In this document: positions 1-21,566 of the stretch, piece by piece
Position numbering within the stretch: position 1 is the stretch's first letter
How the letters are laid out: each line of letters starts with the position of its first letter
NCBI GenBank assembly: GCA_016928715.1
Contig: JAFGKG010000107.1
Location: 1 to 25,348, forward strand
Reading direction: 5' to 3'
Source of the DNA: Chloroflexia bacterium
Lineage (GTDB): Bacteria > Chloroflexota > Chloroflexia > DTKN01
Length of the DNA stretch: 25,348 nucleotides
Made by a program: the position numbers and the translations under genes
The notes under the pieces: model-generated
The model's input: only the letters and a program-made list of their open reading frames with translations
Databases searched by the model: none
Told to the model about the DNA's origin: nothing

Positions 1-225
1 GTTGATGATGCCGACCATGCTGTGGGTGCCATAGGGGATCACGCGGTTGCCCGACAGGGCGAACAGCAGGCTGAGCGAGCTAAAGAGCAGCGCGGGAAGG
101 GGGAAAAATCCTGCCGGCAGATCCGGCCAGCGGGCCAGCAGCCAGCCCCCACAGAGCAAGAGCAGCAATAGAGCCAGGGCAAAGAACCAGATTTGCCGGC
201 GGCGGCTTCTATGTCCCCGGTGCAC
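1..225 (-). CDS. Partial CDS (5' portion only; gene continues beyond window start): hydrophobic membrane protein N-terminus, probable GTG start at 223-225
   Basis: Minus-strand frame is open from the GTG at 225 to base 1 with no stop. Translation ...RRRQIWFFALALLLLLLCGGWLLARWPDLPAGFFPLPALLFSSLSLLFALSGNRVIPYGTHSMVGIIN reads as TM helices. Not in the ORF track because it has no stop inside the window. Overlaps the end of the next gene by ~17 nt. Confidence 0.3.
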   Translation of the reverse strand, partial: MHRGHRSRRRQIWFFALALLLLLLCGGWLLARWPDLPAGFFPLPALLFSSLSLLFALSGNRVIPYGTHSMVGIIN

Positions 226-991
226 AGCATGCCTCCAGGGCCTGCACCGCCGCCTCGCGCGTCTCATAGACGGAAAAAACCCGGTCAAAGCCAGTGATGT
301 GCAGCACGCGGGCCACGCTGTCCCGAGGGCAACAGAACAAAAGCGTGCCCTGCTGCCGTTTGAGATCTTTGGCTACGATGAGCAACACGCGCAGGGCACT
401 GCTGCTGATATAGCCGACCTGGGAGAGGTTCAACAGCAAAAGGCGGGCCCCCGCCTCCAGCGGATCCCGCAGCAGGCGTTCCAACTCGCGGGAGCGGGTC
501 GCATCGATACGGCCTCGTGGGGAAACCTCCGCCGAGCCGTCCGGCAGGTCGGCCCGAAAGCCAATGCAGCGCGTCATGGTCAGCACGTTTTGGCCATCCT
601 CGTGGGCGAACTCGACCCGATCCATCATCCGCCGCATCAAAAAAATGCCCAGGCCGCCCTCGCGGCGTTCCGCCAGAGCGGCATCCAGATTGGGTTCGGG
701 AACACAGTCCGGGTTAAAAGGCGGACTGCTGTCGCGCAGTTGGACCACAAAATCGCGACCCTGCTGCCAACAGAAAAGATGGATCGTACCCTCCAGCCCG
801 TTCTCCTCATAGCCGTGCACAATGATGTTGGTCGCCGCCTCGTCGACGGCCATCTGGATGGAAAAGAGCGCGTTTTCATCCAGCCCCACCTGCCGGCCGG
901 CCTCCATGACAAACTCGCTGATGGGGGTCAGTTGGTTCAACTGGCCGGGAAAGACGCGCTCCAGCAGGTGCTCTCGTTCGGGCATACTCAT
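209..991 (-). CDS. Fusion protein: N-terminal RsbW/SpoIIAB-like GHKL anti-sigma-factor serine kinase + C-terminal STAS (anti-sigma-factor antagonist) domain
   Basis: HATPase_c motifs (DEAATNIIVHG; GGLGIFLMRRMMDRVEF) in the first ~145 aa. STAS-like C-terminus (LLLNLSQVGYISSSALRVLLIVAKDLKRQQGTLLFCCPRDSVARVLHITGFDRVFSVY) with the Ser cluster at the position of the SpoIIAA/RsbV phospho-serine. Start moved from the track's 1051 to ATG 991 (MSMPEREHLL...), which has a GAGG 6 nt upstream. The 991-1051 stretch has poor third-position GC. Confidence 0.75.
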   Translation of the reverse strand: MSMPEREHLLERVFPGQLNQLTPISEFVMEAGRQVGLDENALFSIQMAVDEAATNIIVHGYEENGLEGTIHLFCWQQGRDFVVQLRDSSPPFNPDCVPEPNLDAALAERREGGLGIFLMRRMMDRVEFAHEDGQNVLTMTRCIGFRADLPDGSAEVSPRGRIDATRSRELERLLRDPLEAGARLLLLNLSQVGYISSSALRVLLIVAKDLKRQQGTLLFCCPRDSVARVLHITGFDRVFSVYETREAAVQALEACCAPGT

Positions 992-1170
992 CCACAACCT
1001 CTGTTCGGTAAAAGACCTAGGGCTTGCCCAAGGTCGCTCCCGAATTGCCAATCGGGCCGGGCTGCCGATCCGAGGCCGACCCTCGCAGCACGCCTTAAAA
1101 CCCTTGGGGGCGGCCCCATTTCCATCCTTTGTGGCGGCCGACCATAAAACAGCGCTGGAAAATCCCTGCT

Positions 1171-1199
1171 ATCATAACACATCTCCAGGGCCTTGACAA
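1171..1199 (-). promoter_or_regulatory. Sigma70-like promoter for the kinase-STAS gene: TTGTCA (1199-1194) - 17 nt - TATGAT (1176-1171)
   Basis: Read directly from the reverse complement: cTTGTCAaggccctggagatgtgtTATGATagc. Its -35 overlaps the plus-strand TTGACA at 1193-1198 within the near-palindrome cttgacaag. Confidence 0.4.
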
Positions 1200-1236
1200 G
1201 CACCGTATTGACAAGTCGGCCCATTCAGGGTACACT
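1193..1236 (+). promoter_or_regulatory. Sigma70-like promoter for the SPFH gene: TTGACA (1208-1213) - 17 nt - TACACT (1231-1236), preceded by a second TTGACAAG copy at 1193-1200
   Basis: ccTTGACAAGcaccgtaTTGACAAGtcggcccattcagggTACACTagg. Direct repeat of TTGACAAG at 15-nt spacing. A ~140-nt 5' UTR then leads to GAAGGAG 1368-1374 and ATG 1381. Confidence 0.5.
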
Positions 1237-1380
1237 AGGGGCGAAACCATGCTCTGCACGGGGACAAGAGCAGCAACGGACAACGGTCCAGCCCCGAGAT
1301 GGGGCTAAAACATAGGCCATAAACGGCCCCGCAGCACGGCTGACCATAACAAGAGCACGTTCAGAGCGAAGGAGATGACG

Positions 1381-2508
1381 ATGCAAGAGGGCAAGTTAAA
1401 GTTCATGCTACGCGGAGTCCTTTTGCTGCTGGCAGTCTTTTTCCTGGGATGGATCATCGCCAAAGGGCCTGATCTGGGGACAGGGTCTCTGCGGGGAAAC
1501 TGGCTTGGTCTCTTGGCCTGGCTGCTGACCATGTTCGTCATGCTCTATACCTCGGTCAAGGTGCTCTTTGGTTTTTATGAAGAACCTGGCCAGATCAAAT
1601 ATGGCCTAATGTATTGGGTAGCCAGCCTCTTTATGGGTCAGAAAAAGGTCCAGATCATCTTTCCCGACGGCCGTAAACTGGTGGTCAAGCCGGACGGTCC
1701 CCTGGCCAGCATCTTTGCCAAACTAGACGCCCCGGGCATCCTCATCATTGAAAACGGCGCGGCCGTCATCCTGGAACGCAGCGGCCGCCTGACCCGCATC
1801 CACGGCCCGGGTATCGCCTTTACCCTCGAGTTTGAAAAGATCGCCGAAGTCATTGACCTGCGGCCCAAGATCGCCGAGTGCAACATTGACAACATCCAGA
1901 CCAAGGACGGCTTTATCTTTTCCCTCCGTCCCATTTATGCCACCTACCAGATCGCCACCGGCTTTAACCGCAGAGATGGCAAATATACCTACAACGAGAG
2001 TGACATTATCCGCCTCTATTACGAGGGCGGTTTCCTGCACTCCCGCGAACGCACCGTGGACACTGAGAAACGGGTCCTGGGGCTATTAGAGTATTACACG
2101 CGCAACGTGGCCAATGAAAAGACGATCAACCAAATTGCTCGCCTGAACAGAGCGGGGGATAGCAGGACGGAGATGATCCAGCAACTCGAGGAGGCCTGCC
2201 AGCCGGTCTTGCTGGAGTATGGCATCCACTTGACCGGGATCGACATCGGCCGCATCCTGCTGCCCCCCGAGTTTACCCAGCGGCGCGCCATTCGTGAGAC
2301 CGGGGAGAGCCTGAGCCAGGTCATCACCCTCATCCAAAAAAGCATGGCCGACGTGCAGCACGTCGCCCCCCACGTCGCCATCAACATGGCCGATAACCTC
2401 GAACGCCTGGCCCAGGAGGCCGTCCGGCTGGCCACGGTTTTTGAACAAGGCCCCACAACAGCTCAACTACCGCCAGAAGAGGACACGGAAAAGAGGAAAG
2501 GCAAGTAG
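1381..2508 (+). CDS. SPFH / band-7 (stomatin-prohibitin-flotillin-HflK/C) family membrane protein
   Basis: N-terminal TM segment (LLLLAVFFLGWIIA) followed by a typical SPFH core (KLVVKPDGPLASIF...ILIIENGAAVILERSGRLTRIHGPGIAFTLEFEKIAEVIDLRPKIAE) and a helical/charged C-terminus. Start placed at the second ATG (1381), 6 nt after GGAG. ATG 1375 directly abuts the SD. Confidence 0.85.
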   Translation: MQEGKLKFMLRGVLLLLAVFFLGWIIAKGPDLGTGSLRGNWLGLLAWLLTMFVMLYTSVKVLFGFYEEPGQIKYGLMYWVASLFMGQKKVQIIFPDGRKLVVKPDGPLASIFAKLDAPGILIIENGAAVILERSGRLTRIHGPGIAFTLEFEKIAEVIDLRPKIAECNIDNIQTKDGFIFSLRPIYATYQIATGFNRRDGKYTYNESDIIRLYYEGGFLHSRERTVDTEKRVLGLLEYYTRNVANEKTINQIARLNRAGDSRTEMIQQLEEACQPVLLEYGIHLTGIDIGRILLPPEFTQRRAIRETGESLSQVITLIQKSMADVQHVAPHVAINMADNLERLAQEAVRLATVFEQGPTTAQLPPEEDTEKRKGK

Positions 2509-2530: not shown

Positions 2531-3040
2531 TCAGCTCCAACCTTGCCAATAGCGACGACCTCTTGGTCGCTTGCCCTCGGTCGGAGAGAGAGCCGGTACC
2601 TGCGCCGCGGCTTCCTTCAGGGGGCCCAACGGAATGCCCAATGCCTGCAGCAGGGAGGAAAGAGTGTCGTAAAAGCCCTGGAGGTATTCCCGAGCACCCC
2701 GCTCGTCTTGGGCGAACTCTAACATGGGGCTGGCCGAAAGGAGCAGCGACACGGTCAGGTTTTGCAGGTCCTGGGCAAACCAGACCTCGACGGCATTCAG
2801 CCACTCGGTGGGCTCGGCCGTGGGGTGGGCCAGGGCATCCAAGGGAAAGCCAAAGACCAGCAGCAGCGAGCGCACCGCCACCCGGCAGCCCTGCACGTAG
2901 CTCTGCAGCCGAGCCCCAGGTTCGCAGTCGTCCTGCAGCCAACGATCCTCTGCTGGAAGCTCTGTAGGGGCCAGCTTGGCCGCATAGATGGCACGGATAA
3001 AATTATATAATTCTTGGCGAGTCCATACTTCAGCAGGCAT
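2531..3040 (-). CDS. Hypothetical protein (~169 aa), no recognisable motif
   Basis: Open frame with protein-like composition. Start chosen at ATG 3040 (MPAEVWTRQELYNF...). Convergent with the SPFH gene, stop codons 22 nt apart. Confidence 0.5.
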   Translation of the reverse strand: MPAEVWTRQELYNFIRAIYAAKLAPTELPAEDRWLQDDCEPGARLQSYVQGCRVAVRSLLLVFGFPLDALAHPTAEPTEWLNAVEVWFAQDLQNLTVSLLLSASPMLEFAQDERGAREYLQGFYDTLSSLLQALGIPLGPLKEAAAQVPALSPTEGKRPRGRRYWQGWS

Positions 3041-3138
3041 AGCTGCTTCCTGAGCAGATCTCGGCAGGCCGACCAAACATGTGTTCTATGACCCTATGAT
3101 AGCGCAAAAGACAGCTCTTGTCAACCAGGAGGTTCCTG

Positions 3139-3705
3139 ATGAACCCTTCGACCATCATCGAGTACTTTCCGCTGCAAATCATGAGCCACGAACAACTCGA
3201 AGAGTTGGTCCAACAGGCCCGTGAGGAAACCAAGCGCAGCAGATTCGGCCAGGGCAAACTCAAAAAAGAAGATCAGCCTATCTGCGACATTTGGGAAGGA
3301 CTGGCCGAGCATGTCGCCCAAGCGGTCCTGGACACCCACCTCTATGGAGAGGGTGCCCCCAAAAACTGGCGACAAATCGTCGAGTCAGAGCTGGGGAGTA
3401 TGGAAACAACATACTCGGACGAAATCTGCCGCCAGGTCCGCGCCCTGTACAAAAACTATCTGGATGCGCTCTATGGGATCCTGCAGCGCCACACCCTGCG
3501 CAACATCCCCACCGGCCTCTATAGCACTCAGGGCTACCTGGTGCTCAGAGGGGTCCGCTTTTTCCGCTACACCATGCTGCGCGATACCCCGGAAAAAAGC
3601 TCCCTGGCGCAGTTGCTGGAGATCATGTACAAGGGCGGCTTTCGCTTCGAGCTCGAGTTCGATTTCAAACCACTGACCGGGGAATGGAGACCCCGAGATC
3701 GCTGA
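3139..3705 (+). CDS. Hypothetical protein (~188 aa), no recognisable motif
   Basis: AGGAGG at 3127-3132 followed by ATG 3139 (MNPSTIIEYFPLQ...). Balanced, non-low-complexity composition. Ends 11 nt before the stop of the convergent 1019-aa gene. Confidence 0.6.
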   Translation: MNPSTIIEYFPLQIMSHEQLEELVQQAREETKRSRFGQGKLKKEDQPICDIWEGLAEHVAQAVLDTHLYGEGAPKNWRQIVESELGSMETTYSDEICRQVRALYKNYLDALYGILQRHTLRNIPTGLYSTQGYLVLRGVRFFRYTMLRDTPEKSSLAQLLEIMYKGGFRFELEFDFKPLTGEWRPRDR

Positions 3706-3716: not shown

Positions 3717-6700
3717 CTACCGCCTTTTCTTCTTGTCCCGCTCCTGCCAGTAGGTCAGGAACAGGCCCAGGTAATCCGGCCACTCTATGATAGGCTTGAT
3801 CTCAAAAGGCGGCGTCCGGGTGACGTACAGCTCCAGCCCCTCCCGGGGCATGTCATAGTGCCAATAGAAAAAGTTGTGCAGATTCCACCGCTCCAGCTTC
3901 TCCCTGACCATGCTCCGGACACGCTTATCGAGCTCTGGTGCTCCGGACTCGTTCAGAGCGATCAGTTCATCCAACTGCTCGTGGATAGAATCCGCCAACA
4001 TGTCCACGAGACCCTTCCAATTGACAATAACATTGCGCTCCAGCAGGCTGCGAATATCCTGCCGCTCCGCGCCAGCCTGATGCAGCGACCCGAACCCGTC
4101 TAGCAGGTCGATCACCGTCCGGGTCAGCCCGTCCAAGTCCCCCTGCCAACCCGGCCGCAATTTGGCCTGCAAAAACTGCCGCACATACTGGCGCTCCTCC
4201 TCGCCCTGCAATCCGCTCTGCCGCACGGCCTTGAAGCGATCCAGGTTTTCAGAGACAAACTCGATCATCCCGTCCAAAAGATCCTCGCGATGGGCCATCT
4301 GGTCCAGGGCCCGGGTGACCTCGCTGAGACGGTTCCGCTGCAGGAGCCACTCCTCCAACTTGGAGGCATAGTCTACTCGATCGGATATCCACTGCAGCGA
4401 GTAGTAAAGTTCCTGCAAAAACCTGATCCAATAATCCGCAAGTCGATGGGCTCGCTCGGCCCGAATATGGGCTCGGATTTGCACCGCTGCCGGCAAATCC
4501 TGCCCCGCTTCAAGATCCTCCTCTATCTCTTGTATGACACCAGAGATCAACCGGGCCAGGTCGGCGACGCCTTTCTGCCAACCGGGGAAAAGCGCCCCTG
4601 CCAACCAGGCCGCCAAGCGCTCCCGCACGAGCTCGGACTCGGCCGGAGCCAGCGACAGGCCCTCCGAGAGCCAGGACTGCAGTTGAACCCAGTCACGCCG
4701 GAGTTGATTTCGCAGCCGCCGCCTCAGCCAGCGGCGCAACCGTTCGCCCTGCCAAGCGGCATTGGGGATAACCAGGCCAGAGGCCTCGAACAATGGGGTC
4801 CAGGGAAAATTCTCGAACAGGGGCAACTCGGTCTTGGCCAGATTGGACTCGACCAATTGGAGAAAGTGACCCTCCAGGTCTTTTTCCAACTCCCCCTTGC
4901 GTTTCAGCGGCCGGCCCCACAAATCCCCGGCCAGGGCATCCCACTTTTGCAGTCGCTGCCTGTAATCAGACAGACATTTGCCCCAAATTTCGTCGACGAT
5001 CTGGCGGGCCTCCTCTAGATCCAGACGGCGGCCGCGCTCATCCCAGGCCCCCTGTAATTTAGTCTCGAGGATCTGGTCCGGCCGGTGCAGCACCACCGCC
5101 TCCACACGGCCCAGATAGGCTTTGACCACATCCTCGATCAGACCGGGATCCAGAACAACACGATCCGCCAGCAATGGGGCCAGCAGTTTGTTGGCCTTTT
5201 CGGTCAATAAAGCCCGATCCAGGCAGATCCCCAGAACAACATCACTCCCAAACAGACGGGATTCGACCTGTTCCAATTGATCCGGGGTCAGTTGCAAGTT
5301 GTAGCCAGCCAGGGCCTCGTTCAGGCGACCCCGCCAATCATCCAACTTGGATGTAAGCAGCGTCCCACGGATCGCCAGGACCGCGGCGCGAGCGGCCTGG
5401 GCCAGCTCTTCCGATCCGCTCCCACCGGCCTGCTCCAACAACATCCCCCGCAGATACGCCTCCACAGATCCTGTCCCAACATGCCACTGCAGCCAGCCCC
5501 AAAAGTACTTTTGGAACAAAGCGATCTGCCGCGGGCTCAAGGGCATGGCATGGTCGTATTCCTTCAATGCCCGGCCGCAGGCCCTGTACAAATCCTCCTG
5601 CACCCGCCGGCACAATCGCCAGACAAAATCCTCGAGGGCTTGCAGGAGCTCCTCTCGATCCTTCTGCAAAGAGTCCGCCAGTCCACTGTATGCCGACTGT
5701 ATCAAAGCGGCAAGCTGCTGCAGGGATTCCTGCCATCCGGGGAAAAAATAGCGGTTCAGCCATCCCACCAGGACCTGTCGATCCATCGCCTGTCGCAGCA
5801 AAAGGATTGTGTCGGGGGACAAGGTCTCCCGCGCCTCCTGCGAAGGCTCGCGCAGAAATTGGCGCCACTGCTCCAGAACGTGGTCCGGCGGCAGCCGCAG
5901 GCGCTCCAGGTCACGCCCCTGAGCTTCCTCTCGCAGCTTTTGCACGAGCCCGGTCGGCAACTGCAGTTGCGAGAACTCGGCAAGGTCCTGCTGATGCATG
6001 GACTGCTCGATCAGCTTGGCCACCTCGCCCTGCGAGGGCAGTTCCTGCAAAGAGAGGGGCTCTGTCCGCAGCGCCCGCCAGTCCCGCCAGAAATCTCGCA
6101 CAAAGAGGCCCAGCAACTCGATCAGTCGCGAGACCTCGTTAGTTTCCAAGCGATCGGGGAGATTCAATAACGGCTCATCATCAATATCAAATCTCTCTCC
6201 CCGCCGCTGCAGCACGGCTTCGGACTGCACGTTAAAGGTCACCCGAATTCGATCGCGGGCCGCACTGCCAGAACGCAGCCATTCCACGATATCGTCCCAG
6301 TTCTGCAGACGAATGACCCGGCCGACCGCGCAGCTCACCAATAACAGCAGGGTCCCCCCAAAAAGAAAGCGCAGGGGTTTATAGCTAAAGCAAACGAGAT
6401 CGAGCAGCACCAAGGGGGCCATTCGCAGCAGGGTGCTGCGGCCCTTTTCGACTTTGCCCAGGGCCAAATACAACAGGGCCGTGATCGCGGCGGCCAACAA
6501 GACCAGGAAAAAGGCGCTCAGATATAACGAGAGATCCCCCTCCGGACTGCGCACCCACATCCAAAGCCACTGCAGCACAACCATCAACACTGTACTCAGC
6601 CAAGATCCCAACCCGGCACAGACGGCCACAAAGGGAGCGTAATAGGCATAGTACCACGGTCCAGGCGACTTGGCCCCCAGGCCTAGGCGATAGAAAAGCC

Positions 6701-6776
6701 AAAAGCGCACCATTTCCAGGATAAAGGTGAGACCGAAGGTCATGACCAGCATGACTTCGGTGCGAAAATTCTCCAT
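3717..6776 (-). CDS. Large (~1019 aa) membrane-anchored protein: N-terminal ~170-aa polytopic TM domain + ~850-aa helical cytoplasmic domain with 4 internal repeats containing a [F/R]PGWQ core; unknown function
   Basis: TM helices in the first ~170 aa (e.g. VMLVMTFGLTFILEMVRFWLFY; FFLVLLAAAITALLYLAL). Repeats: NRYFFPGWQESLQQLAALIQSAY / AGALFPGWQKGVADLARLISGVIQE / AKLRPGWQGDLDGLTRTVIDLL / FQKYFWGWLQWHVGTG. No P-loop. Start set at ATG 6776 (MENFRTEV) with GGAG 6 nt upstream. The track's TTG at 6803 would lie inside the 5' UTR. Confidence 0.7.
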   Translation of the reverse strand: MENFRTEVMLVMTFGLTFILEMVRFWLFYRLGLGAKSPGPWYYAYYAPFVAVCAGLGSWLSTVLMVVLQWLWMWVRSPEGDLSLYLSAFFLVLLAAAITALLYLALGKVEKGRSTLLRMAPLVLLDLVCFSYKPLRFLFGGTLLLLVSCAVGRVIRLQNWDDIVEWLRSGSAARDRIRVTFNVQSEAVLQRRGERFDIDDEPLLNLPDRLETNEVSRLIELLGLFVRDFWRDWRALRTEPLSLQELPSQGEVAKLIEQSMHQQDLAEFSQLQLPTGLVQKLREEAQGRDLERLRLPPDHVLEQWRQFLREPSQEARETLSPDTILLLRQAMDRQVLVGWLNRYFFPGWQESLQQLAALIQSAYSGLADSLQKDREELLQALEDFVWRLCRRVQEDLYRACGRALKEYDHAMPLSPRQIALFQKYFWGWLQWHVGTGSVEAYLRGMLLEQAGGSGSEELAQAARAAVLAIRGTLLTSKLDDWRGRLNEALAGYNLQLTPDQLEQVESRLFGSDVVLGICLDRALLTEKANKLLAPLLADRVVLDPGLIEDVVKAYLGRVEAVVLHRPDQILETKLQGAWDERGRRLDLEEARQIVDEIWGKCLSDYRQRLQKWDALAGDLWGRPLKRKGELEKDLEGHFLQLVESNLAKTELPLFENFPWTPLFEASGLVIPNAAWQGERLRRWLRRRLRNQLRRDWVQLQSWLSEGLSLAPAESELVRERLAAWLAGALFPGWQKGVADLARLISGVIQEIEEDLEAGQDLPAAVQIRAHIRAERAHRLADYWIRFLQELYYSLQWISDRVDYASKLEEWLLQRNRLSEVTRALDQMAHREDLLDGMIEFVSENLDRFKAVRQSGLQGEEERQYVRQFLQAKLRPGWQGDLDGLTRTVIDLLDGFGSLHQAGAERQDIRSLLERNVIVNWKGLVDMLADSIHEQLDELIALNESGAPELDKRVRSMVREKLERWNLHNFFYWHYDMPREGLELYVTRTPPFEIKPIIEWPDYLGLFLTYWQERDKKKRR

Positions 6777-6847
6777 GGCAAGCTCCACTACCACTCTGGA
6801 CAAATCGGCTTTTCCAGCGCCCCTGGTTCTTGGTCCAACACGATACC

Positions 6848-6898: not shown

Positions 6899-7720
6899 TC
6901 AAGTCTTTTCCAGGACCGCCAACTGAAACGCGTGTTGGGCCTCCACCATCTGCCCCGGGTCCTCGTAGCGCCGCCGCAACCACTCCCGCAGCTTCTGCAG
7001 GGAGCGCTGGTGCAGATCTTCCGGCACACGCCAGGAATCGGAAAAGGCCCGTTCGGCGACGTGCTCCAGGACCTGCGCCGGGCAGGCCCGGCCCGACCAT
7101 ACCGCCGCGTCGGCTGCCTGTTGGGGCTGCAGGCCCAGCTCGCGCAGGGCCCGGCGCAGCCGTTCCGGCTCGCTCTGGCCCGGCCAACTCACCCGTCCGC
7201 CCATCGAGACCACGATCTCGCGCCAGCGCCCCATCACCTCCTCAAAGGGATTGGGCGTCCCCCAGCGCACCCAGCCCAACAGAAAGCAGCCCCCCGGAGC
7301 GAGCACCCGCCGCGCTTCGGCCAGGGCGGCGCGCCATCCACCGACCAGGTGGAACAGGTAGACGGCCAGGACGGCCTGAAAAGCGCCCCCGGCAAAGGGC
7401 AGGTGCACCACGTCGGCCTCGACCAGGGGGAGGCGCCCCGGTCCCTCCTTGGCCCGCAGCGCCTCCAACATGGGCCGCGACAGGTCGATCCCGGTCACCC
7501 GCAGGCCCCGCGCGGCCAGGGGCAGGGCCAGGCGGCCCGTCCCCACCCCCAGGTCCAACAGGGCCGCGCCCGGCCCCAGCCCGGCCAGCCGGCAGATGCC
7601 GGCCGCCACCCGCTCCGCCACGCCGGGAGGAAAGCCCCGGGTGCGATCGTACAGCGGGGCCGCCCGGTCAAAGGGCAGGGAGCCCCCCCGCAAGGCCGGT
7701 TCGACTACAAAAGCGGACAT
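6899..7720 (-). CDS. Class I SAM-dependent methyltransferase
   Basis: Motif I LLDLGVGTGRLALPLAARGLRVTGIDLS and post-I acidic/hydrophobic motifs (LPLVEADVVHLPF; LAPGGCFLL). Start at ATG 7720 (MSAFVVEP) with AGGAGG 5 nt upstream, 9 nt after the stop of the upstream gene. Confidence 0.8.
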   Translation of the reverse strand: MSAFVVEPALRGGSLPFDRAAPLYDRTRGFPPGVAERVAAGICRLAGLGPGAALLDLGVGTGRLALPLAARGLRVTGIDLSRPMLEALRAKEGPGRLPLVEADVVHLPFAGGAFQAVLAVYLFHLVGGWRAALAEARRVLAPGGCFLLGWVRWGTPNPFEEVMGRWREIVVSMGGRVSWPGQSEPERLRRALRELGLQPQQAADAAVWSGRACPAQVLEHVAERAFSDSWRVPEDLHQRSLQKLREWLRRRYEDPGQMVEAQHAFQLAVLEKT

Positions 7721-7728
7721 CGGGCCTC

Positions 7729-9915
7729 CTAGATCATCCGGGCATTCAACAACACCCACAGCGCCGCGTGGACGGCCGCGTACACCAGCAGTACGGTCAC
7801 CCCGTAGCGCTTGGCCTCGCCGTCCGCGACAACCCGATCGAGCAGATAGCCGCAGAGCAGGGTGTACGGCAGCGCCACCGGGGCAAAGAGATCCCAGTCC
7901 ATCGCGGCGCCCAGGTCCGGGTACATCAACGAGGCAAAGAGCAGCAGCCCCACCGCAGCGAGCAACAGCGCCCGCAGCGCTGGATCCCGCCAGGGCACCC
8001 GCCGAGGCGCCCAGAGCACCAACAGCGCCAGCAGGGGCAGGACCACCGGAGCCACCAAGAGATGTTCGTTGAGCAGGTTGGCCAGGTGCCGCAGGGAAAA
8101 GAGGCTATAGCCATCCGGGCTGCGCAGGGGCACCAACACGTAGGGATTGTTGCCCCGGGTCCAGCCCCCCTGCACCAAGGCCGCCCAATCATAGCCCCCG
8201 GCGCTCAAGAGGGCGACCAGGGCCAGCAGCGGCAGCGCCCCTGCCAGCAGCAGCCGGCCCAGCAGCAGCCGGCGCGGCGCCCCCGCCGGCAGATCCTGCC
8301 AGGCCCGCACGAGCGTATAGAGCACCGCCGGCCCCACCAGGAGGGCCTGCAGGTGGCAGGCGCAGGCCAATACCCACAGCGCCAGCACCAGCGCCGGCCG
8401 GCCCCGCCCACGCAGGACGCGCAGCATCTGCCAGAACAGGGCCAGCAGGGCCACCGTCACAAAGGTATAGTTCTCCAGGTAGCCGAAACCGAACTGCACC
8501 GTGGCCAACGTCGCCAAGAGGGCAAAGGCGGCCACCCGGCCAAAACGTCCTCGGGCCACCTCCTCGCTCAGGGCCGCCGCCAGCGCCACGTAGAGCGCCC
8601 CCAACACCACGCCGCTGAGCACATAGACGTCCTCCACCCGCCAGCCCCAGAGCCGCTCGGCCCATTGGTAGAGCGTGGCCTGGCTGAAAAAGGCCAATAT
8701 CTCGGCCTCTTTGAAACGATAGCCCGCGCCAATGTGGGCGATCAGGTGGGGGCCGTCCCCCCAGAGCACCCGCGAACGCAGGGCATAGCCCAGGGGGACA
8801 AAGAGCAGGCCCAGCAGCAGCCAGCGGCCCGGAGGACGCAGGCGCGGCGCCAGCCGGTGGCCCAGACGGATCAGGCCCCGGACCAGGCGGCGCAGGTCCC
8901 GATTGAAGCGGGGGATCGCCGCGCAGGCCACCGCCAGCAGGGGCAGCCAGCGCAGTAGGGACCGGGGGAAGGGGCCGGCCGGCGCGTAAAAGGGCTCCAA
9001 AACCTGCAGTGCCCAACTGCCCCCCACCGGCAGATAGGGCGTGAGCAGGTGCAGCAGGGCCAGGACCAGGGCCAGCAGCAGGCAGGCCAGGGCAAAGGGG
9101 GCCCAGGGGCGCTCCCGCCGCCGGGAGGAACGGGCCCAGCCCAAGGCCGACCGGCCCCGGAAAAGCCGGCCCACCAGGGCCGCCCCCAGCAGCACCCCCA
9201 GCAGCAGGCCGGCCCAGGGAAGCACGGCCGGCAGAAAACGGGCCAACAGCAGGCTCAGCAGCAGTTCCAGGGACAAGCCCAGGGCCAGACCGGCCTCCAG
9301 CGGCCAGCCCAGTGCCCAGGAAAGGGCCAGGGCGGCCAGGCCCACGGCGCTCCAGAGCAGGACCAGCGGCCAGAGCAGGCCGGTGGGCCGCAGGGGGCGG
9401 GAGGCGTGCAGCCGGTCCACGATTCCCCCCAGGTGGCGGGCGTCGCCGGGCGGCTGAAAGGTCTCGGTGCGCAGCTCCAGCACGCTCTCCCAACGCCAGG
9501 CCGAGGGGGCCTCGTAGACCAGGTGATAGAGGTGCGGGCCCGGGGCCGGCTCGATGCGCAGCGCGGGCCGGCCGTCCAGCCACAGCGTCACCGCCGCCGT
9601 CTCGAAAGCCGGCGGCCGGCTGCCGTCCAGGCGCAGGGTCAAACGCCGGGGCGCGCCCAGAACCGGCAGGCGGATACGCGCCCGCGAGGTCGTCCAACGA
9701 TAAGTATAGAGGCCGTTATCCTCCCAATCGTAAAAGCCCTGCAGCCGGCCCCACTCCCCCGGCCCCAGGTCCAGGGTGTAGCCGGGGGAGAGGCGGCCAG
9801 CCGTGCAGACCCCGGCCAGTGCCACCAGGAACAGGACCAGGACACCCAGCAGCAGGCGCCCATAGGTGGATCGCCCCTCGTTCAACACGGCCCGGCGTCC
9901 CCTCAACGCACCCAT
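7729..9915 (-). CDS. Large polytopic integral membrane protein (~728 aa), possible GT-C-type glycosyltransferase/DUF family. N-terminal TM + ~130-aa extracytoplasmic domain, then >10 TM helices
   Basis: Very hydrophobic Leu/Ala-rich helices throughout. Protein-like loops (YTYRWTTSRARIRLPVLG; IAHIGAGYRFKEAEILAFFSQATLYQWAERLWGW). Overlaps the upstream gene by 13 nt. Confidence 0.7.
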   Translation of the reverse strand: MGALRGRRAVLNEGRSTYGRLLLGVLVLFLVALAGVCTAGRLSPGYTLDLGPGEWGRLQGFYDWEDNGLYTYRWTTSRARIRLPVLGAPRRLTLRLDGSRPPAFETAAVTLWLDGRPALRIEPAPGPHLYHLVYEAPSAWRWESVLELRTETFQPPGDARHLGGIVDRLHASRPLRPTGLLWPLVLLWSAVGLAALALSWALGWPLEAGLALGLSLELLLSLLLARFLPAVLPWAGLLLGVLLGAALVGRLFRGRSALGWARSSRRRERPWAPFALACLLLALVLALLHLLTPYLPVGGSWALQVLEPFYAPAGPFPRSLLRWLPLLAVACAAIPRFNRDLRRLVRGLIRLGHRLAPRLRPPGRWLLLGLLFVPLGYALRSRVLWGDGPHLIAHIGAGYRFKEAEILAFFSQATLYQWAERLWGWRVEDVYVLSGVVLGALYVALAAALSEEVARGRFGRVAAFALLATLATVQFGFGYLENYTFVTVALLALFWQMLRVLRGRGRPALVLALWVLACACHLQALLVGPAVLYTLVRAWQDLPAGAPRRLLLGRLLLAGALPLLALVALLSAGGYDWAALVQGGWTRGNNPYVLVPLRSPDGYSLFSLRHLANLLNEHLLVAPVVLPLLALLVLWAPRRVPWRDPALRALLLAAVGLLLFASLMYPDLGAAMDWDLFAPVALPYTLLCGYLLDRVVADGEAKRYGVTVLLVYAAVHAALWVLLNARMI

Positions 9916-12900
9916 AGCGCCCCCAGATCCAGGCTGTCCCCCAGGGATTCCCCCGCGGCCGAGAAAACGGGCAAGCGCTGCATGGTGACCGGGTCATAGA
10001 CGGCCACGATCAGGCGGTAGCGGCCCGGCGGGGCCTCGGCGTCGACTTGCAGGGGGATGTCGTCGCGAATGTGCTGCCCCGGCTGCCAGAGCGTCGCCGG
10101 ATACCACTGCCCCAGGGGCCCATCCCACTGTCCCCAGAGCCGGTCCGGGCCGACGATCTGGGCCGTGACGAAATAGTCGAGCGGCAGTGGATCCAAAGCG
10201 CCCCACTCCAGGGCCAGGGGCACGCGATCGCCCGGTTCAAAGGGGCCCGCGCCCAGTTCGTAGGCGGTCAGCTCGAGGCCGGGGCCAAAACGCGCCCCGG
10301 AGGGCTGGGCCGGGCTGTGCGGCCAGAGCAGGGCAGCCGAGAGGTCCAGGGCGGTCAAATCCCGTACGGCGCCGTCCTCCCATTGGAAATGGGCCAGCGG
10401 CCGCACGGCCACGATCTCTTGCCCGTAATAGACCCACAGCGCGGCAAAGTAAGAGCCGGGGGGGAGCGCCGACCACGTCTCGGCCCCCGCCGGAAAAGCG
10501 CGCTCCTCCCCCTCCACCCAGGCCTGGGCGCTGCGGGCCTCCAGGTCCGCCCGCAGGCGCAGGCTGCCGCGATCGGGCAGGGCCAGCGGGCCCCACCAGG
10601 CATAGTGTTGGGCGCCATGGAAGGTATCCTCCCAGACCTCCAGCCCCAGGCGCAGGGGCCGGCCGCTGTCGTTTTGCAGGCGCAGGTCGATCTCCAGGAC
10701 CGTGCCCTCGACGCTCGTATCGGGCGCCAGCAGCACCTCCTGCGGTTGGGGCCACAGCCCGCCGGGCGCGCTGCCCTGCTGCAGGGCGACCCAGCAGGGC
10801 CAGAGCGGCCCCTCGGCCTGCAGGGAGACCTGCACGCGGCCGGGCAGCTCGCGGGGATCGCTGCCATACAGCGAAAAGCCGGCCGGCAGGTCGACGGTCT
10901 CGGTGGTGCCGTCCTCCCAGCGCACACTGAGCCGGGTCGGCTCGGGAGCAGCCAGGGCCAGGAGCAGGGAGCGGCGTCCGGCCTGGTCCGCCAGTTCGCC
11001 CGGCTGCCGGCCGAGGCCGGCCCCGTCGGCGTAAAAGACGAGCGACCGGCCCGGTTCCAGGGTGGGGTAGGGGCCATAGCTCTGCAGGAGCCGCTCGGCC
11101 AGGGGCTCGCGGGCGTGGATCTCGGCCGCCGGCCGCCCGCTGTAGGCGTCCGCGCGCAGGTCCAAAAAGGCGACGATGGCCGGGTCGCGCCGGTACAGGG
11201 CCATGCCGCCGCCGGCCCAAATGCGCTCTTGGGGGAAAAAGCCCAGGGGGTGGGGGTCGTCGGCCCCATCGAGCAGTGCGTAGGCCGGGGCCAGGCCGGG
11301 GACGCGCCGGTCCTGGGCACCGTAGGCCAGGCTCAGGCGGCCATAGACGGGGTGGGCGCGCAGAAAATAGGCGAACAGGCCCAACTGGACGCGCGAGCGC
11401 TCCGGCCGGCCGGTGAGATAGACGGAGGCCCCCGGCGGCAGGAGCGCCGCAGCCTCCTCAACCTGCAGCGCGGCCCGACCAAAATGCGCCGGCCGCTCCC
11501 AGTAGGGGGCCAGGACCAGGGCGTCGGCCCGCAGGAAAAGGAGCAGGGGGACCAGGAACAGGGCCAGCAGGGCAGCCTGTGCGAGGCGCCGCCGGGTGCC
11601 CGAGGCCGGCCGGACCAGCCAGGCCCAAAGCCGGTCCCAACCCTCCATCAGCAGGCCCAACAGCAGCGGCGCGACCAGGACGGCGCCCTTCATATAGGCG
11701 TAGGGATAGGGCTTGAAGCGCTCGGCCAAAGCCGCGCCCAACAGGCCGCGCTGCTGCAGGGCCCGGGCGGCCGGCCAGAACCAGCCGGCCAGCCAAGCCA
11801 AATAGAGCGCGCCGGGCAGGATCAACGACAGCCACAGCCAGCGCAGCCGGCTGCGCCAGAGTGCTGCCAGGAGCAGCAGGGCGCACAGCCCCAGGCCCAG
11901 CCACTGGAGGCCCCGGTCCAGGGCGGACAGCGCGGCGGCGGTGCGGGAAAAGGGCAGCAGGCCCAGGGCCTCCCCCGGCGAGATCAGGCGAAACAGGCCC
12001 AGCGTCGTCATCTGCTGGGAATAGCGAAAGGCAAAGCCCTGCCCATAGTCCAGGACCGGGCCCAGGGCCAGCAGCACCGAGAGCAGGGCCGTGCCTAGGC
12101 CGGTCAGCAGGAAGGCCCGGCGGCGCTGGCTGCGGATCAGCTCGTACAGGCCCAGGCCCAGCGCGGCAGGCACAAACACGGTCAGGGCCGGATAGTAGGC
12201 GATGGGCAGCACGGCCACCGCCGCCGCCCCCAGCAGCACCGTGGAGGCGGCCGGCCGGCGCAGCACGGCCAGCCAGAGCAGCAGGGCCAGGGGGACCAGG
12301 GGCAGGGCGGCCATCTGCATGCCGAAATTGAACAGCGCGATCCACAGACCCAGGGCATAGAGGGCGACCAGCAGGCTGGCCAGGAGGGCCGAGCGGTGCC
12401 CCATGCGCAGACCACGCCGGAACAGCAGATAGAAGGCCAGCACCGCCAGGCCGCGCAGCAGGGCCAGCGTGGGCGCAAAGCTGCGCAGCGCGTCCCAGCC
12501 CCGGAGCTGCTGCAGGCTGCCCTGCAGGATGCTAAAGCCCAGGGTCAGGCCAATGCGCGGGGGAGAGGCGTTCAGGTCGCGCAGCGGGTTGGGCGGCATT
12601 TCCCCGATCTGGCCCAGGGGCACCTGCAGCAGGTACTCGGCCACCGGCAAATAGTTCTCTGGGTCCCAGTTCTCGCCGATCACGGTGATATAGCCGTAGC
12701 GCATCAGCGGCAGCGCACCCAGCAAAAAGGCCAGCAGGGCCATCAGCCAGACCGGCCCGTGCCGGCGCCAGTTCGGGCTCAACCGCTCCCCCCGCCGCCG
12801 CCTCAGGGCCAGGCTGTTGATGAGCAGGCCCAAGGTCAGGGCCAGCCAAAAGGCCCCGCGCAGGTCCAGGACCGTGCGCAGGCTGTAATAGCCTACCAGC

Positions 12901-13055
12901 AGCAGCAGCAGGTAGCCCAACAGCGGGGCCAGCAGGCCCTGCTCCTCCCGCCACTGGCGGGGCAGCAGCAGACTGGCCAGGCCATAGCCGAGAAAAGCCA
13001 GAAAAGCCGTGGAAAGCAGGGCGTAGAGCAGCAGATTCAGGGCGTTCCAGAGCAA
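9903..13055 (-). CDS. Very large (1050 aa) GT-C-like membrane protein: N-terminal ~13-TM domain (candidate acidic loop-1 motif ENWDPENY) + ~450-aa C-terminal extracytoplasmic domain
   Basis: TTG start 7 nt after AAGGAGG (rc of 13056-13075). Architecture resembles ArnT/PMT/YfhO-type GT-C enzymes. Family assignment not verified. Confidence 0.7.
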   Translation of the reverse strand: MLWNALNLLLYALLSTAFLAFLGYGLASLLLPRQWREEQGLLAPLLGYLLLLLVGYYSLRTVLDLRGAFWLALTLGLLINSLALRRRRGERLSPNWRRHGPVWLMALLAFLLGALPLMRYGYITVIGENWDPENYLPVAEYLLQVPLGQIGEMPPNPLRDLNASPPRIGLTLGFSILQGSLQQLRGWDALRSFAPTLALLRGLAVLAFYLLFRRGLRMGHRSALLASLLVALYALGLWIALFNFGMQMAALPLVPLALLLWLAVLRRPAASTVLLGAAAVAVLPIAYYPALTVFVPAALGLGLYELIRSQRRRAFLLTGLGTALLSVLLALGPVLDYGQGFAFRYSQQMTTLGLFRLISPGEALGLLPFSRTAAALSALDRGLQWLGLGLCALLLLAALWRSRLRWLWLSLILPGALYLAWLAGWFWPAARALQQRGLLGAALAERFKPYPYAYMKGAVLVAPLLLGLLMEGWDRLWAWLVRPASGTRRRLAQAALLALFLVPLLLFLRADALVLAPYWERPAHFGRAALQVEEAAALLPPGASVYLTGRPERSRVQLGLFAYFLRAHPVYGRLSLAYGAQDRRVPGLAPAYALLDGADDPHPLGFFPQERIWAGGGMALYRRDPAIVAFLDLRADAYSGRPAAEIHAREPLAERLLQSYGPYPTLEPGRSLVFYADGAGLGRQPGELADQAGRRSLLLALAAPEPTRLSVRWEDGTTETVDLPAGFSLYGSDPRELPGRVQVSLQAEGPLWPCWVALQQGSAPGGLWPQPQEVLLAPDTSVEGTVLEIDLRLQNDSGRPLRLGLEVWEDTFHGAQHYAWWGPLALPDRGSLRLRADLEARSAQAWVEGEERAFPAGAETWSALPPGSYFAALWVYYGQEIVAVRPLAHFQWEDGAVRDLTALDLSAALLWPHSPAQPSGARFGPGLELTAYELGAGPFEPGDRVPLALEWGALDPLPLDYFVTAQIVGPDRLWGQWDGPLGQWYPATLWQPGQHIRDDIPLQVDAEAPPGRYRLIVAVYDPVTMQRLPVFSAAGESLGDSLDLGALWVR

Positions 13056-13096
13056 ACGGGCACCTCCTTGGCAGGAGCAAAGTTGCTGGTGAGGGT

Positions 13097-13105
13097 ATTA
13101 TAGCA
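13097..13105 (-). promoter_or_regulatory. Extended -10 element TGcTATAAT upstream of the 1050-aa gene
   Basis: rc of 13097-13105 = TGCTATAAT. Weak -35 (TGCAAA) 16 nt upstream. Lies in the 73-nt gap after the permease stop. Confidence 0.3.
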
Positions 13106-13128
13106 CAAGGTGTGCGGGTTTGCAGCCC

Positions 13129-15765
13129 CTACCTTTCCCGCAGCCGCGGTTCAAAGATGCGCTCCAAGGCGACACCCAACATGACGAAAGCGAAACCGAC
13201 GAGCAGGAGCAGCGCCAGCGGCTGCAGTACCACGTGATAATCCCCGGTATAGATGCCCCGAGAGAGACCGTCCGTGATCAGCTTGCCCCAGGTAGGCAGC
13301 ACGGGATCGCTCATCCCCATAAAGGCCAGCGTCGCCTCCAGAAAGACGTAACCCGGCACCAGGATGACCAACTGCGGGACCAGCACGGGGATGATGCGCG
13401 GGATCAGGTAGTGAAAGACGATGCGCCAATCCCCGGCCCCGTAGGAGCGGGCGGCCTCGATATACGACGCCCCCTTCATCTGCAAAAAGATGGAGCGATA
13501 GTTCTTGATCTGCGGGCCAAAGATACTCAAAAGCACGGTGACGCCCAAGAGCACCCAAAAGGTCTTGGAATAGAGGATATAGATCATGAGGCTGACGGGG
13601 AGAAAGGGCAGGATCAGGTTCACCTCGGTGATGCGCTGAATGATGGCATCCATCCAACCGCCGAACCAGGCGCCGATCGCGGCGATCATCATCGTGATCA
13701 ACGAGGTACTGACCGCCGCCAGGATGCCAAAGGACAGGGCCACCGGCATCCCCCAGAGCAGGGGCACCAGTAGATCCCGCCGACGATGGTCCGTCCCCGC
13801 CAATCCATAGACCTGTCCGTAGAGGATAAACTTGGCGTCCACGTCGGCGCCCTCCTCGAACACGAACGACTGCACCCGCAGTTCGTAGTGTCCCTCCAGG
13901 GCAACGGGGTCCTCGGGCTGCGGGTCGATAAACAACACCCGCACCGGGGATAGCTCCAGATCCACCCTCCAGAACGGCCTGCGGTTCAGCTTGCGGCGCA
14001 GGCTCTCGTCCTGGGAGAAAATATAGGTCTGCCGGGACGAGCGCAGCGAATCGGTCAGCAGATCGATCTCCCGGCCGTCGGGCCTCACCCAGGTCAGGGC
14101 GACATGCGGCGACTTGACGTCATATTGGGCCTCAAAGTAGAGGCTCAAGTCCTGGGGAAATCCTTCGTACGGAAAATCAAGGGGAAAGGAAAAACTGATC
14201 TCGGTCATGTCCTCCGAGATGGCGCGCACGCTCTTGTCGATCGACCGCTCCCGACTGTCCAGGATAAAGGTCTTGGGCAAATCGTCCTTCCTGAAAAGAT
14301 TGACCCAGGTAGGATAGGCGTTCTGCGGATTGTACCTCCAGCTCTCCTCGTCCTCGCGCCAGCGTGCGATCATCTCATCGTAGGGGATGGCGATCACGGC
14401 ATAGACCGAAAGGCCGATCATGACCACAATGATGGACAGGCCGAACAGGGCCGAGGGATGCCGCACGATCTCGCGCAGCGCCGGTTTGAACTGTTCCAGG
14501 CGGTCTCGCAGCGTTTTCCTGGATGCCAGGAGGCTGTTGCGCGGGCGATCGGGCGCGGCCGACGGGAGAAAGGCCGTCCAGGAGGGCCTCGCCCGGCGCT
14601 CAAAGGGCCGCCGCAGGGCACGCCTGAACGCCTCCAGGCGCTCCCGCAGGCTGGGCCGGCGGGCGCCCAGCGCCGCGCTGTCCTTTTGCGCGCCGCTGTC
14701 GATCCGCACCCGGGGATCTACCAGGGCATAGATAATGTCCAGTAAAAAGATCGTGATCGCCAAAAGATAGGCAAAGGCCGTCACGAGAGCCACGATCATC
14801 GGCGTGTTAAAGCGATGCAGGGCGCCCCAAAAGAGCCGCCCGATGCCCTCTACCTTGAAAAACTGCTCCAGTACGATCACCTCCTGCCAGAGGTTGACGA
14901 ACAGCAGGGCAAAACTGGTCACCAGGTAGGGCAGCACCGGCCTCAGGATATAGCGCCGTTCGAGCATGCCGGCGGGCAATCCCTTGGCCTTGGCCATCTC
15001 GACGTGATCCTCGCTGGCATAGATCAAAAAGAAGGTGCGCCAGGCATAGACGCTCTGTATGAACCCGCTGAGAAAGATGGCCAGGAAGGGCAGCAGCATA
15101 CGCTTGAGCAGGATCGGCAAATATCCCCAGGTAAACTCGCCGGGCCAGGCATCCAGGACCCCCCCGGTAGACAGGCCGCCCAACACCCGGATAGAGAGCA
15201 GGTTCAGGACAATGCCCAAAACCCAGGCCGGTACAGAGGACAAGGGGGAAAGCATCACGATAAAGCGGTCCATCCAGCGGCCGTACTTGCGGGCCAGCGG
15301 CGCCGCCACAAAGACGCTGGCGAAGAAAAGCAAGAGGTTGGCCGGGCCAAACAGGAGCAGCGTACGGGGCAAGCTGTCCAGAATCTGCGCCCGCATATCC
15401 TCCCCCCAATCGAGCCTCAGGCCCTGGCCCAGCCAGCGAAAACAGCGCAGCATAAAGGGCTCGTTCAAACCGGCCGCCTCCTCCATGGCCGCTTGGGTCT
15501 CCTCCACGAGCGCCATCCGCTCTTCGAGGGAGACGTCCCGCAGCCAGCCCCCCCGAATCCGCATGGCAATAGCCCAGGAGATGTTGTTGCGGATCACCAC
15601 GTCGACAAAACCACCCAGGTTGGCGATGAGGATAATCAGGTACACGGCCACGACGACGGTAAAGGCGAGCGAGACCGCCCGCACCGCCGTGTAGCGGGCC
15701 AGGCGGGCCAGCAGCGTGGTGCGCAGGCGTTTGAGCATTGCGTTGACACTTGTCCGTAGAGCCAT
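13129..15765 (-). CDS. Fused ABC transporter permease (OppB/DppB-like N-terminal half + OppC/DppC-like C-terminal half, peptide/nickel type), 878 aa
   Basis: Two EAA-type permease signatures (...LIYASEDHVEMAKAKGLPAGMLERRYILRPVLP... and ...KGASYIEAARSYGAGDWRIVFHYLIPRIIPVL...). About 220-aa extracytoplasmic insert after the first TM of the C-terminal half. AGGAGA RBS before ATG 15765. No ATPase or binding protein adjacent. Confidence 0.85.
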   Translation of the reverse strand: MALRTSVNAMLKRLRTTLLARLARYTAVRAVSLAFTVVVAVYLIILIANLGGFVDVVIRNNISWAIAMRIRGGWLRDVSLEERMALVEETQAAMEEAAGLNEPFMLRCFRWLGQGLRLDWGEDMRAQILDSLPRTLLLFGPANLLLFFASVFVAAPLARKYGRWMDRFIVMLSPLSSVPAWVLGIVLNLLSIRVLGGLSTGGVLDAWPGEFTWGYLPILLKRMLLPFLAIFLSGFIQSVYAWRTFFLIYASEDHVEMAKAKGLPAGMLERRYILRPVLPYLVTSFALLFVNLWQEVIVLEQFFKVEGIGRLFWGALHRFNTPMIVALVTAFAYLLAITIFLLDIIYALVDPRVRIDSGAQKDSAALGARRPSLRERLEAFRRALRRPFERRARPSWTAFLPSAAPDRPRNSLLASRKTLRDRLEQFKPALREIVRHPSALFGLSIIVVMIGLSVYAVIAIPYDEMIARWREDEESWRYNPQNAYPTWVNLFRKDDLPKTFILDSRERSIDKSVRAISEDMTEISFSFPLDFPYEGFPQDLSLYFEAQYDVKSPHVALTWVRPDGREIDLLTDSLRSSRQTYIFSQDESLRRKLNRRPFWRVDLELSPVRVLFIDPQPEDPVALEGHYELRVQSFVFEEGADVDAKFILYGQVYGLAGTDHRRRDLLVPLLWGMPVALSFGILAAVSTSLITMMIAAIGAWFGGWMDAIIQRITEVNLILPFLPVSLMIYILYSKTFWVLLGVTVLLSIFGPQIKNYRSIFLQMKGASYIEAARSYGAGDWRIVFHYLIPRIIPVLVPQLVILVPGYVFLEATLAFMGMSDPVLPTWGKLITDGLSRGIYTGDYHVVLQPLALLLLVGFAFVMLGVALERIFEPRLRER

Positions 15766-16030: not shown

Positions 16031-16939
16031 TTATAGTGGACCGTGATCCAGCCTGCGTGCGCTTGCCCGCCGCGTCAGCCGCTCGATGCTCTCCACGTGC
16101 TCCGGCTCGTAGCCGTCCCCGAACTTGGTCTTGGGCAGTTCCGCCTTGCGCGCCATCAGCTCCGCGTACTCGTCGTCGTCCACCATGGCCACGCAGCGGC
16201 CGATACTGGACTCGCCGTCGACAAAGCGCCAGGGGAAAAAGCCGACGGTCGTGCGGCGGTTGCAGAGCAGGTCAATGTCCCCGCCCAGGCACTCGGCGTG
16301 GATGATGTGGTGGGGGAACATCTCGATGTGCATGAGCTGGTACTTGTCCGGCGTAAAGCGCTCGGCCAGGGGCTGGCCGTAGAGCTGCCGAAAGACCTGG
16401 TCGGCCTCGACGGCCTGGCGCGGCATCCAGTCGCGGATGATCGTGTTCATGGGGTGGTCGGCGCTGCCGCAGTCCACCCCAATCCACTGGATCTTTTTTT
16501 CCTTGGCCCAAACGGCGAATTCGCGGTCCGGACCCGGGTGCTGCACCATGTAGCGGATCTCGTCGGCGTAGGGCTGGTCCCAGCCAAAGTGGTGGTAGCC
16601 GGTGTGGATGATGAGGATATCGCCCTCGCGCACCTCCACCCGCTCCTCGATCATGGCCGGGGTATAGATCTGGTAGTCGCCGACGGCGTCCGAGAGGTCC
16701 ACCACCGCGGCCGGCCCGACCAAAAAGTCGTTCAGTTCGAGGGCGGCGATGTCCTTGCCGGCGCTGAAAAAGTGGATCTCGCCGTCCAGGTGGGTGCCCA
16801 GGTGGTTCGAGTGGGTCAGCAGTTGGCCGTTGGCGCCGTTGGGGGCCAGCCGCTTGAAATATTTCACCTGCAGCGGCTCGTAGGTGGGCCACGGTGGCGT
16901 GGCGATGCCCAGCGGGATGGTCAGGTCGATCAGTTTCAT
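16031..16939 (-). CDS. Cyclase-family protein (kynurenine formamidase / putative cyclase, PF04199-like)
   Basis: HxGTHxDxxxH metal-binding signature (HSNHLGTHLDGEIHF) near the N-terminus. AAGGAG RBS then ATG 16939. The last ~20 aa (RRASARRLDHGPL) look low-complexity, so the 3' end may be mis-framed. Confidence 0.8.
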   Translation of the reverse strand: MKLIDLTIPLGIATPPWPTYEPLQVKYFKRLAPNGANGQLLTHSNHLGTHLDGEIHFFSAGKDIAALELNDFLVGPAAVVDLSDAVGDYQIYTPAMIEERVEVREGDILIIHTGYHHFGWDQPYADEIRYMVQHPGPDREFAVWAKEKKIQWIGVDCGSADHPMNTIIRDWMPRQAVEADQVFRQLYGQPLAERFTPDKYQLMHIEMFPHHIIHAECLGGDIDLLCNRRTTVGFFPWRFVDGESSIGRCVAMVDDDEYAELMARKAELPKTKFGDGYEPEHVESIERLTRRASARRLDHGPL

Positions 16940-21549: not shown

Positions 21550-21566
21550 GGTTGTGCTCCTGTGAG

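Follow-up and report, generated by a model that had tools for sequence, protein, structure and literature searches.

The DNA analysed here (hereafter the window) is the complete 25,348-bp contig of a Chloroflexia metagenome-assembled genome (MAG; 66% GC). Our subject is one of its genes, the kinase-STAS gene, which encodes an RsbW-type kinase joined to a STAS substrate domain in a single protein. We consider it rather likely that this protein is the core of a partner-switching module in which kinase and substrate reside in one chain and the phosphatase is supplied by the next gene, a membrane GAF-PP2C gene cut by the contig end. The module is an ordinary variant of a well-known partner-switching kind and had not previously been characterised.

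The preliminary description of this DNA, made from the letters alone, had proposed a single polypeptide with the kinase first and the STAS domain second, and Pfam found both domains in that order and in the same frame. The C-terminal STAS domain, which was to be verified by a domain scan, was detected by both Pfam and TIGR00377 (Table 1). The open frame is uninterrupted from 209 to 1051 on the minus strand in the list of open reading frames (ORFs), with neither a frameshift nor a stop between the two domains. We placed the start at ATG 991, which is preceded by AGAGG 8 nt upstream and is where the homologues all begin, as does the 260-aa NCBI protein P0001; the same evidence led us to reject the TTG codon at 1051 as a start. 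Only 13 aa precede the kinase domain and the interdomain linker is about 10 aa long, the canonical first beta strand of the STAS domain being missing or replaced by this linker. NCBIfam assigned the protein to the anti-sigma-antagonist superfamily, with weak matches to RsbW, RsbA and SpoIIAB.

The predicted structure agreed with these assignments. An AlphaFold2 model based on 27 sequences showed a continuous chain with a mean predicted local distance difference test score (pLDDT) of 92 and a predicted template modelling score (pTM) of 0.63. In Foldseek searches, the N-terminal half matched RsbW (6m36/6m37), SpoIIAB (1th8/1l0o) and UsfX (8ih8) with template modelling (TM) scores of 0.77-0.90 on the target, and also the RsbU-RsbW fragment of Rv1364c (3ke6). 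The C-terminal half matched SpoIIAA, RsbV and TM1442 (TM about 0.8), and its sequence matches in the PDB were TM1442, SpoIIAA and RsfB.

The residues expected of an active kinase and its substrate were largely retained. The serine cluster YISSSAL had been described as lying at the phospho-acceptor position, and the HMMER alignments bore this out: its middle serine, Ser197, was aligned onto the phospho-serine of SpoIIAA (1th8_B, FMDSSGL) and of TM1442 (1sbo_A, YMDSAGL). We counted residue conservation over 82 aligned non-redundant proteins, one for each locus. The acceptor serine was kept in 82/82 loci, the Glu and Asn of the N-box and the GGLG of the G2 box were invariant, and the Asp of the G1 box was present in 78/82 loci, including the window protein.

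The preliminary description had stated that no PP2C phosphatase is encoded nearby. This did not hold, the minus-strand ORF running from GTG 225 to the window edge being the 5' end of a GAF-PP2C gene; the apparent lack of a phosphatase is an edge artefact, because the contig end cuts this gene. Its start codon is preceded by GGAGG six bases upstream and lies within a 17-nt overlap with the 3' end and stop of the kinase-STAS gene, and we conclude that the two genes are translationally coupled. The 75 encoded residues comprise two hydrophobic helices and are 45-51% identical to, and in register with, the N-termini of the GAF-PP2C proteins of three relatives (L001, L003 and L005), which, together with the position of GGAGG, led us to reject ATG 267 as the start. 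In these three loci, for which genes were called, the kinase-STAS gene is followed by a gene for a protein of 1182-1195 aa whose start overlaps it by 17-23 nt; in these proteins a hydrophobic N-terminal region precedes four GAF domains, and a SpoIIE/PP2C domain (E 1e-51 to 1e-57) occupies the C-terminus. The gene in L001 lies at 10764-14351. The window covers the N-terminal part only, and the PP2C domain itself falls beyond the contig end. We defined the window's clade as the 9 non-redundant loci whose kinase-STAS proteins are at least 55% identical. Among loci with enough downstream sequence, a scan with hidden Markov models (HMMs) found a PP2C domain downstream on the same strand in 7/7 clade loci and 49/52 other loci.

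We also observed a gene for a GAF-HisKA-HATPase_c histidine kinase with a PilS-like domain of six transmembrane helices directly after the GAF-PP2C gene in L003 (14329-16179) and L005 (13875-15821), that is, in two of the three gene-called relatives, and a 2-kb gap of matching size in L010. The histidine kinase gene may belong to the same operon as the GAF-PP2C gene; the window ends before the corresponding position.

Table 1. Features of the window. Positions are nucleotides of the window unless marked aa (residues of the kinase-STAS protein).
Feature	Position	Strand	Details
Kinase-STAS coding sequence	209..991	-	ATG 991, TAG stop 209-211, 260 aa
RsbW/SpoIIAB-type GHKL kinase domain	572..952	-	aa 14-140; Pfam HATPase_c_2, E 3.9e-30
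N-box of the kinase domain	aa 50-55	-	DEAATN
G1 box of the kinase domain	aa 86-92	-	RDSSPPF
G2 box of the kinase domain	aa 111-115	-	EGGLG
STAS (anti-sigma antagonist) domain	248..526	-	aa 156-248; Pfam STAS, E 5.6e-19; TIGR00377, E 3.5e-20
Ser197 codon	401..403	-	predicted phospho-acceptor, middle Ser of YISSSAL
5' end of membrane 4xGAF-PP2C gene	1..225	-	GTG 225, 75 codons, cut by contig end
Kinase-STAS promoter	1171..1199	-	TTGTCA (1199), 17-nt spacer, TG-extended TATGAT ending 1171
SPFH promoter	1208..1236	+	TTGACA (1208), 17-nt spacer, TACACT ending 1236
SPFH/Band_7 membrane protein	1375..2508	+	377 aa; Pfam PF01145, E 1.9e-12, 48 bits vs cut-off 23.6
sA, small protein	2531-3076	-	no Pfam family; clade HMMs
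sB, small protein	3118-3705	+	no Pfam family; clade HMMs
Large ORF	3717-6803	-	1028 aa; no Pfam or PADLOC match
Large ORF	7729-9915	-	728 aa; no Pfam or PADLOC match
Large ORF	9903-13055	-	1050 aa; no Pfam or PADLOC match
Seven housekeeping- or transport-like genes	6899-7759, 13129-15765, 16031-16939, 18012-20615, 20158-21648, 21584-23140, 23207-24952	-	

The fusion is conserved in relatives, a point that had been left for verification. A word-indexed search returned about 40 full-length homologues with 50-62% identity, all with both domains, and searching 1.84 billion representatives exhaustively brought up 22,548 matches at E up to 1e-3; about half of the best 150 representatives among these matches were proteins of 250-275 aa matched end to end. 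Scanning one genome per GTDB species yielded 305 loci, of which the best 80 were all from Chloroflexota, with Chloroflexia, Roseiflexaceae, Herpetosiphonaceae, Kouleothrix, Oscillochloris trichoides DG6, Chloroploca, Viridilinea and Anaerolineae among their taxa. In total, we collected the kinase-STAS fusion from 83 non-redundant genome loci of independent assemblies. That an assembly error or a frameshift joined two adjacent genes is thus extremely improbable: the same two-domain ORF of about 260 aa recurs in dozens of independent assemblies, which excludes a frameshift artefact, and the structural model is continuous and of high pLDDT.

More distant relatives exhibited other domain orders: PP2C-kinase-STAS, which is the layout of Rv1364c (P0139 and P0128), kinase-STAS-STAS, STAS-kinase, three STAS domains followed by a kinase, kinase-GAF-GAF-PP2C and GAF-PP2C-kinase. 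Given these many permutations of kinase, STAS and PP2C, the kinase-STAS fusion itself is not exceptional, and fusion among partner-switch components is a common theme. Fusions in the reverse order, STAS-kinase, were seen in P0042-P0047 (268-277 aa), and elaborate permutations among P0050, P0095, P0150 and P0187, such as kinase-HAMP-PP2C-HTH followed by three STAS domains. A Chloroflexota-type STAS / kinase-STAS / GAF-PP2C operon was also present in L040, L053, L063 ('uncultured Klebsiella sp.') and L032 ('Candidatus Gracilibacteria'), whose taxonomic labels as MAGs look wrong, unless it is the contigs that were mis-binned. Within the searchable library, a literature search for the two-domain fusion or for partner switching in Chloroflexota found no paper; annotation pipelines already label kinase-STAS proteins automatically as 'anti-sigma factor antagonist' or 'RsbW'.

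The kinase-STAS gene is divergent from a gene encoding an SPFH/Band_7 membrane protein, and the promoter region between them is conserved. The sequence TTGACAAG occurs at 1193-1200 and at 1208-1215; the repetition 15 nt later was correctly noted in the preliminary description, which had both promoters overlap at one shared hexamer and took the repeat for a shared operator. We found instead that in the window each promoter uses its own copy of the repeat. Both are sigma-70-like with 10/12 consensus matches each, and a consensus scan of 2.7 kb returned exactly two promoter-like sites, both located here (0.9 ± 0.8 expected). Transcription is predicted to start near 1164 on the minus strand and near 1243 on the plus strand. 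Conservation of the two promoters carries more weight than the scan. Facing the SPFH gene, TTGACA, 16-17 nt and TAAACT were found in 7/7 relatives with a divergent SPFH gene; facing the kinase-STAS gene, an extended -10 element TGnTAT(C/G)AT was found in 9/9 clade loci, window included. In L005, L007 and L008, a single palindromic CTTGTCAA forms the -35 element of both promoters, and in L001, L003, L006, L016 and L010 a separate hexamer, TTGC(C/T)(G/C), serves the kinase-STAS promoter. The relatives have only one copy of the repeat, and the window two, one for each promoter. An operator is not required, because two conserved back-to-back promoters account for the repeat. Overlapping RNA polymerase footprints would presumably make the two promoters compete.

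The leader of the kinase-STAS gene is about 170 nt long; across relatives the leaders measure 43-179 nt and are unconserved, and we therefore saw no case for a riboswitch or attenuator. A terminator-like hairpin at 1032-1016 was not conserved either, and an Rfam scan of the whole window gave no match.

The pairing with the SPFH gene, noted in the preliminary description, stood within the clade and not beyond it. The SPFH gene is divergent in the window and in 7 relatives, and a Band_7 gene is linked in 9/9 clade loci, where the two small genes sA and sB adjoin it in every case according to clade HMMs; among the 74 other loci of the kinase-STAS family, the HMM for Band_7, which is clade-specific, detected none within 10 kb. 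In L010, where the SPFH-sA-sB trio has been inverted and moved to a position beyond the phosphatase gene, downstream of it, the linkage has survived the rearrangement. L087 has the trio, the kinase-STAS gene being absent within the 17 kb examined, and the closest SPFH homologue (43% identity; L086, 1-13914) lies in an unrelated context between unknown proteins of 757 and 1535 aa. The SPFH pairing is thus real, clade-specific and facultative, and SPFH, sA and sB probably form a three-gene unit. A profile search with the SPFH protein recovered 10 close relatives only; a single-sequence search of a 5.8-billion-protein database returned no match, not even the query itself, which is probably a limitation of its word index. 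The SPFH homologue in L086 sits downstream of DUF1156 and DUF499 genes, a pairing known from restriction- or defence-type loci.

The domain identities, the conserved catalytic and acceptor residues, the operon linkage to the PP2C gene and the conserved promoters are shown; the mode of action that we propose goes further. We infer that, at the expense of ATP, the kinase domain would phosphorylate Ser197 in the STAS domain, in cis or in trans across a dimer. On sensing a signal through its GAF or membrane domains, the co-transcribed, translationally coupled and membrane-anchored 4xGAF-PP2C protein would take this phosphate off again. The unphosphorylated STAS domain would then dock on the kinase domain and displace the target held there; this target is not encoded nearby, and our default guess would be a sigma factor elsewhere in the genome. 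Re-phosphorylation would reset the switch, and the fusion would fix a 1:1 ratio of kinase to antagonist at high local concentration. Because the window's clade is devoid of a standalone STAS gene (0/8 loci within 10 kb), no local substrate other than the fused STAS is left; neither the window nor the clade loci showed a further STAS-containing ORF, and the RsbR-type sensor and RsbS of a stressosome (RsbR/RsbS/RsbT) are thus not co-encoded.

Several observations weigh against such a switch. The window ORFs gave no match to a sigma-70 family domain, and no sigma factor turned up among the genes called within 10 kb in three relatives or in the clusters of conserved neighbours at the 83 loci, which contain a HEAT-repeat protein, a second PP2C and housekeeping genes. 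The statement that neither a sigma factor nor a PP2C phosphatase is encoded nearby was thus right for the former in the window and wrong for the latter. The pTM of the AlphaFold2 model implies that the packing of the two domains is not confidently predicted. Outside the clade, a standalone STAS gene lies directly upstream of the kinase-STAS gene in 63/72 Chloroflexota loci and keeps the acceptor serine, in YISS[AP]GL; in such loci, the principal substrate may be other than the fused STAS. The resulting STAS / kinase-STAS / PP2C order and the acceptor serine of the standalone protein would also suit an input of the RsbT/RsbS type, where the fused STAS would sequester the kinase and its phosphorylation would free the kinase to activate the adjacent GAF-PP2C. 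The phosphatase would then act on another STAS, for example the standalone one upstream, and the fusion would be a regulator instead of a substrate. In Bacillus subtilis, RsbT is indeed a HATPase_c_2 paralogue that activates RsbU. We nevertheless regard this scheme as unlikely for the window, whose clade offers no standalone STAS within 10 kb to act upon and whose operon contains no RsbR-type protein, second kinase or anti-sigma factor; furthermore, the best NCBIfam matches were RsbW, RsbA and SpoIIAB.

The kinase domain could also be weak or dead, the protein being then a constitutively tethered anti-sigma/antagonist pair or a decoy antagonist resembling RsbW3 and controlled otherwise than by self-phosphorylation. 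The Gly of the G1 box, kept in 79/82 loci, is replaced by Ser in the window protein (RDSSPPF), one of the three exceptions, and in its nearest relatives, and this change could weaken kinase activity. The reports on the kinase activity of Rv1364c, as cited in secondary sources, are conflicting, one paper bearing a title that begins 'Loss of kinase activity...' (Sachdeva 2008, cited in PMC9138534), and RsbW3 of M. smegmatis is an antagonist that acts via heterodimer formation (PMC10950880). We consider a weak or dead kinase decidedly unlikely, since the Glu and Asn of the N-box, the Asp of the G1 box, the GGLG of the G2 box and the acceptor serine are retained and strongly conserved, and a translationally coupled PP2C makes sense only if phospho-serine is produced. 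Alternatively, the SPFH protein with sA and sB might be the local output, controlled by the switch or serving as its scaffold in place of a sigma factor. Their linkage to the kinase-STAS/PP2C operon in all clade loci, including the rearranged L010, the back-to-back promoters with adjacent or shared -35 hexamers and the membrane anchor of the phosphatase all point in this direction. Against it stand the lack of Band_7 in the 74 other family loci, as judged with the clade-specific HMM, the trio without a kinase-STAS gene in L087 and the unrelated context of the closest SPFH homologue in L086; moreover, we know of no precedent for such an output. We hold it to be quite improbable, and find similarly doubtful an elaborated form, a clade-specific, sigma-independent switch in which the kinase-STAS protein, after loss of the standalone STAS, and the GAF-PP2C would regulate, or be organised by, SPFH-sA-sB, with expression of the two sides made mutually dependent by their promoters.

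The remainder of the contig is occupied by three large ORFs and by seven genes that look like ordinary housekeeping or transport genes, namely a methyltransferase, a fused ABC permease, a cyclase-family protein, a CLC channel with CBS and TrkA_C domains, an AllG-like protein, a CoA-ligase-family protein and a solute-binding protein. The 728-aa and 1050-aa ORFs are 57-59% identical to syntenic genes in L001, L005 and L007. By eye, a PGWQ motif recurs at the centre of internal repeats in the 1028-aa ORF, whose match to the proteins of 353-394 aa at the same position in relatives is confined to the first 310 or so residues. A PADLOC scan of seven neighbouring proteins gave no defence-system match.

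Joining kinase and antagonist removes stoichiometry as a variable in the partner switch, and the small 260-aa protein would lend itself to studying whether an anti-sigma kinase phosphorylates its antagonist in cis or across the dimer. As the 83 loci attest, the family is common in Chloroflexota, and we found no experimental work on it; it is otherwise a routine signalling module.

The closest characterised relative is Rv1364c of M. tuberculosis (PAS-PP2C-kinase-STAS), which provides a precedent for autophosphorylation of a fused STAS: according to PMC9138534 (section 8.5) and PMC10950880, Ser600 of its STAS domain is phosphorylated by the kinase domain of the same chain, and the PP2C domain reverses the modification. 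In both proteins the kinase is directly N-terminal to the STAS domain on one polypeptide. In Rv1364c, however, PP2C and PAS are on the same chain, whereas here the PP2C belongs to a separate membrane protein, which is much larger and has four GAF domains in place of PAS; the window protein is just 260 aa long, and a SigF-like sigma factor was not seen linked to it. The Bacillus modules RsbW/RsbV/RsbU(P) and SpoIIAB/SpoIIAA/SpoIIE share with ours the three activities (here predicted), the folds (TM 0.77-0.90), the position of the acceptor serine and the kinase motifs. They differ in that here the kinase and antagonist are fused, the operon has no sigma gene and the sensor of the phosphatase consists of a transmembrane region and four GAF domains.

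Partner-switch components are likewise combined on one chain in HsbR of P. aeruginosa, SypE of V. fischeri and CrsR of Shewanella, but there the kinase and phosphatase are fused and the STAS is free, whereas here the kinase and STAS are fused and the phosphatase is free. Some systems of this type have outputs other than sigma factors. SypE and its partner SypA are covered in PMC10120452. The uncharacterised STAS / kinase-STAS / GAF-PP2C operons of other Chloroflexota (for example Oscillochloris trichoides DG6, Kouleothrix and Chloroploca) resemble the window in having an orthologous kinase-STAS gene (35-46% identity) followed by GAF-PP2C. They differ by an additional first gene for a standalone STAS and by having no SPFH neighbour, whereas the window's clade has no standalone STAS and carries the divergent SPFH-sA-sB genes.

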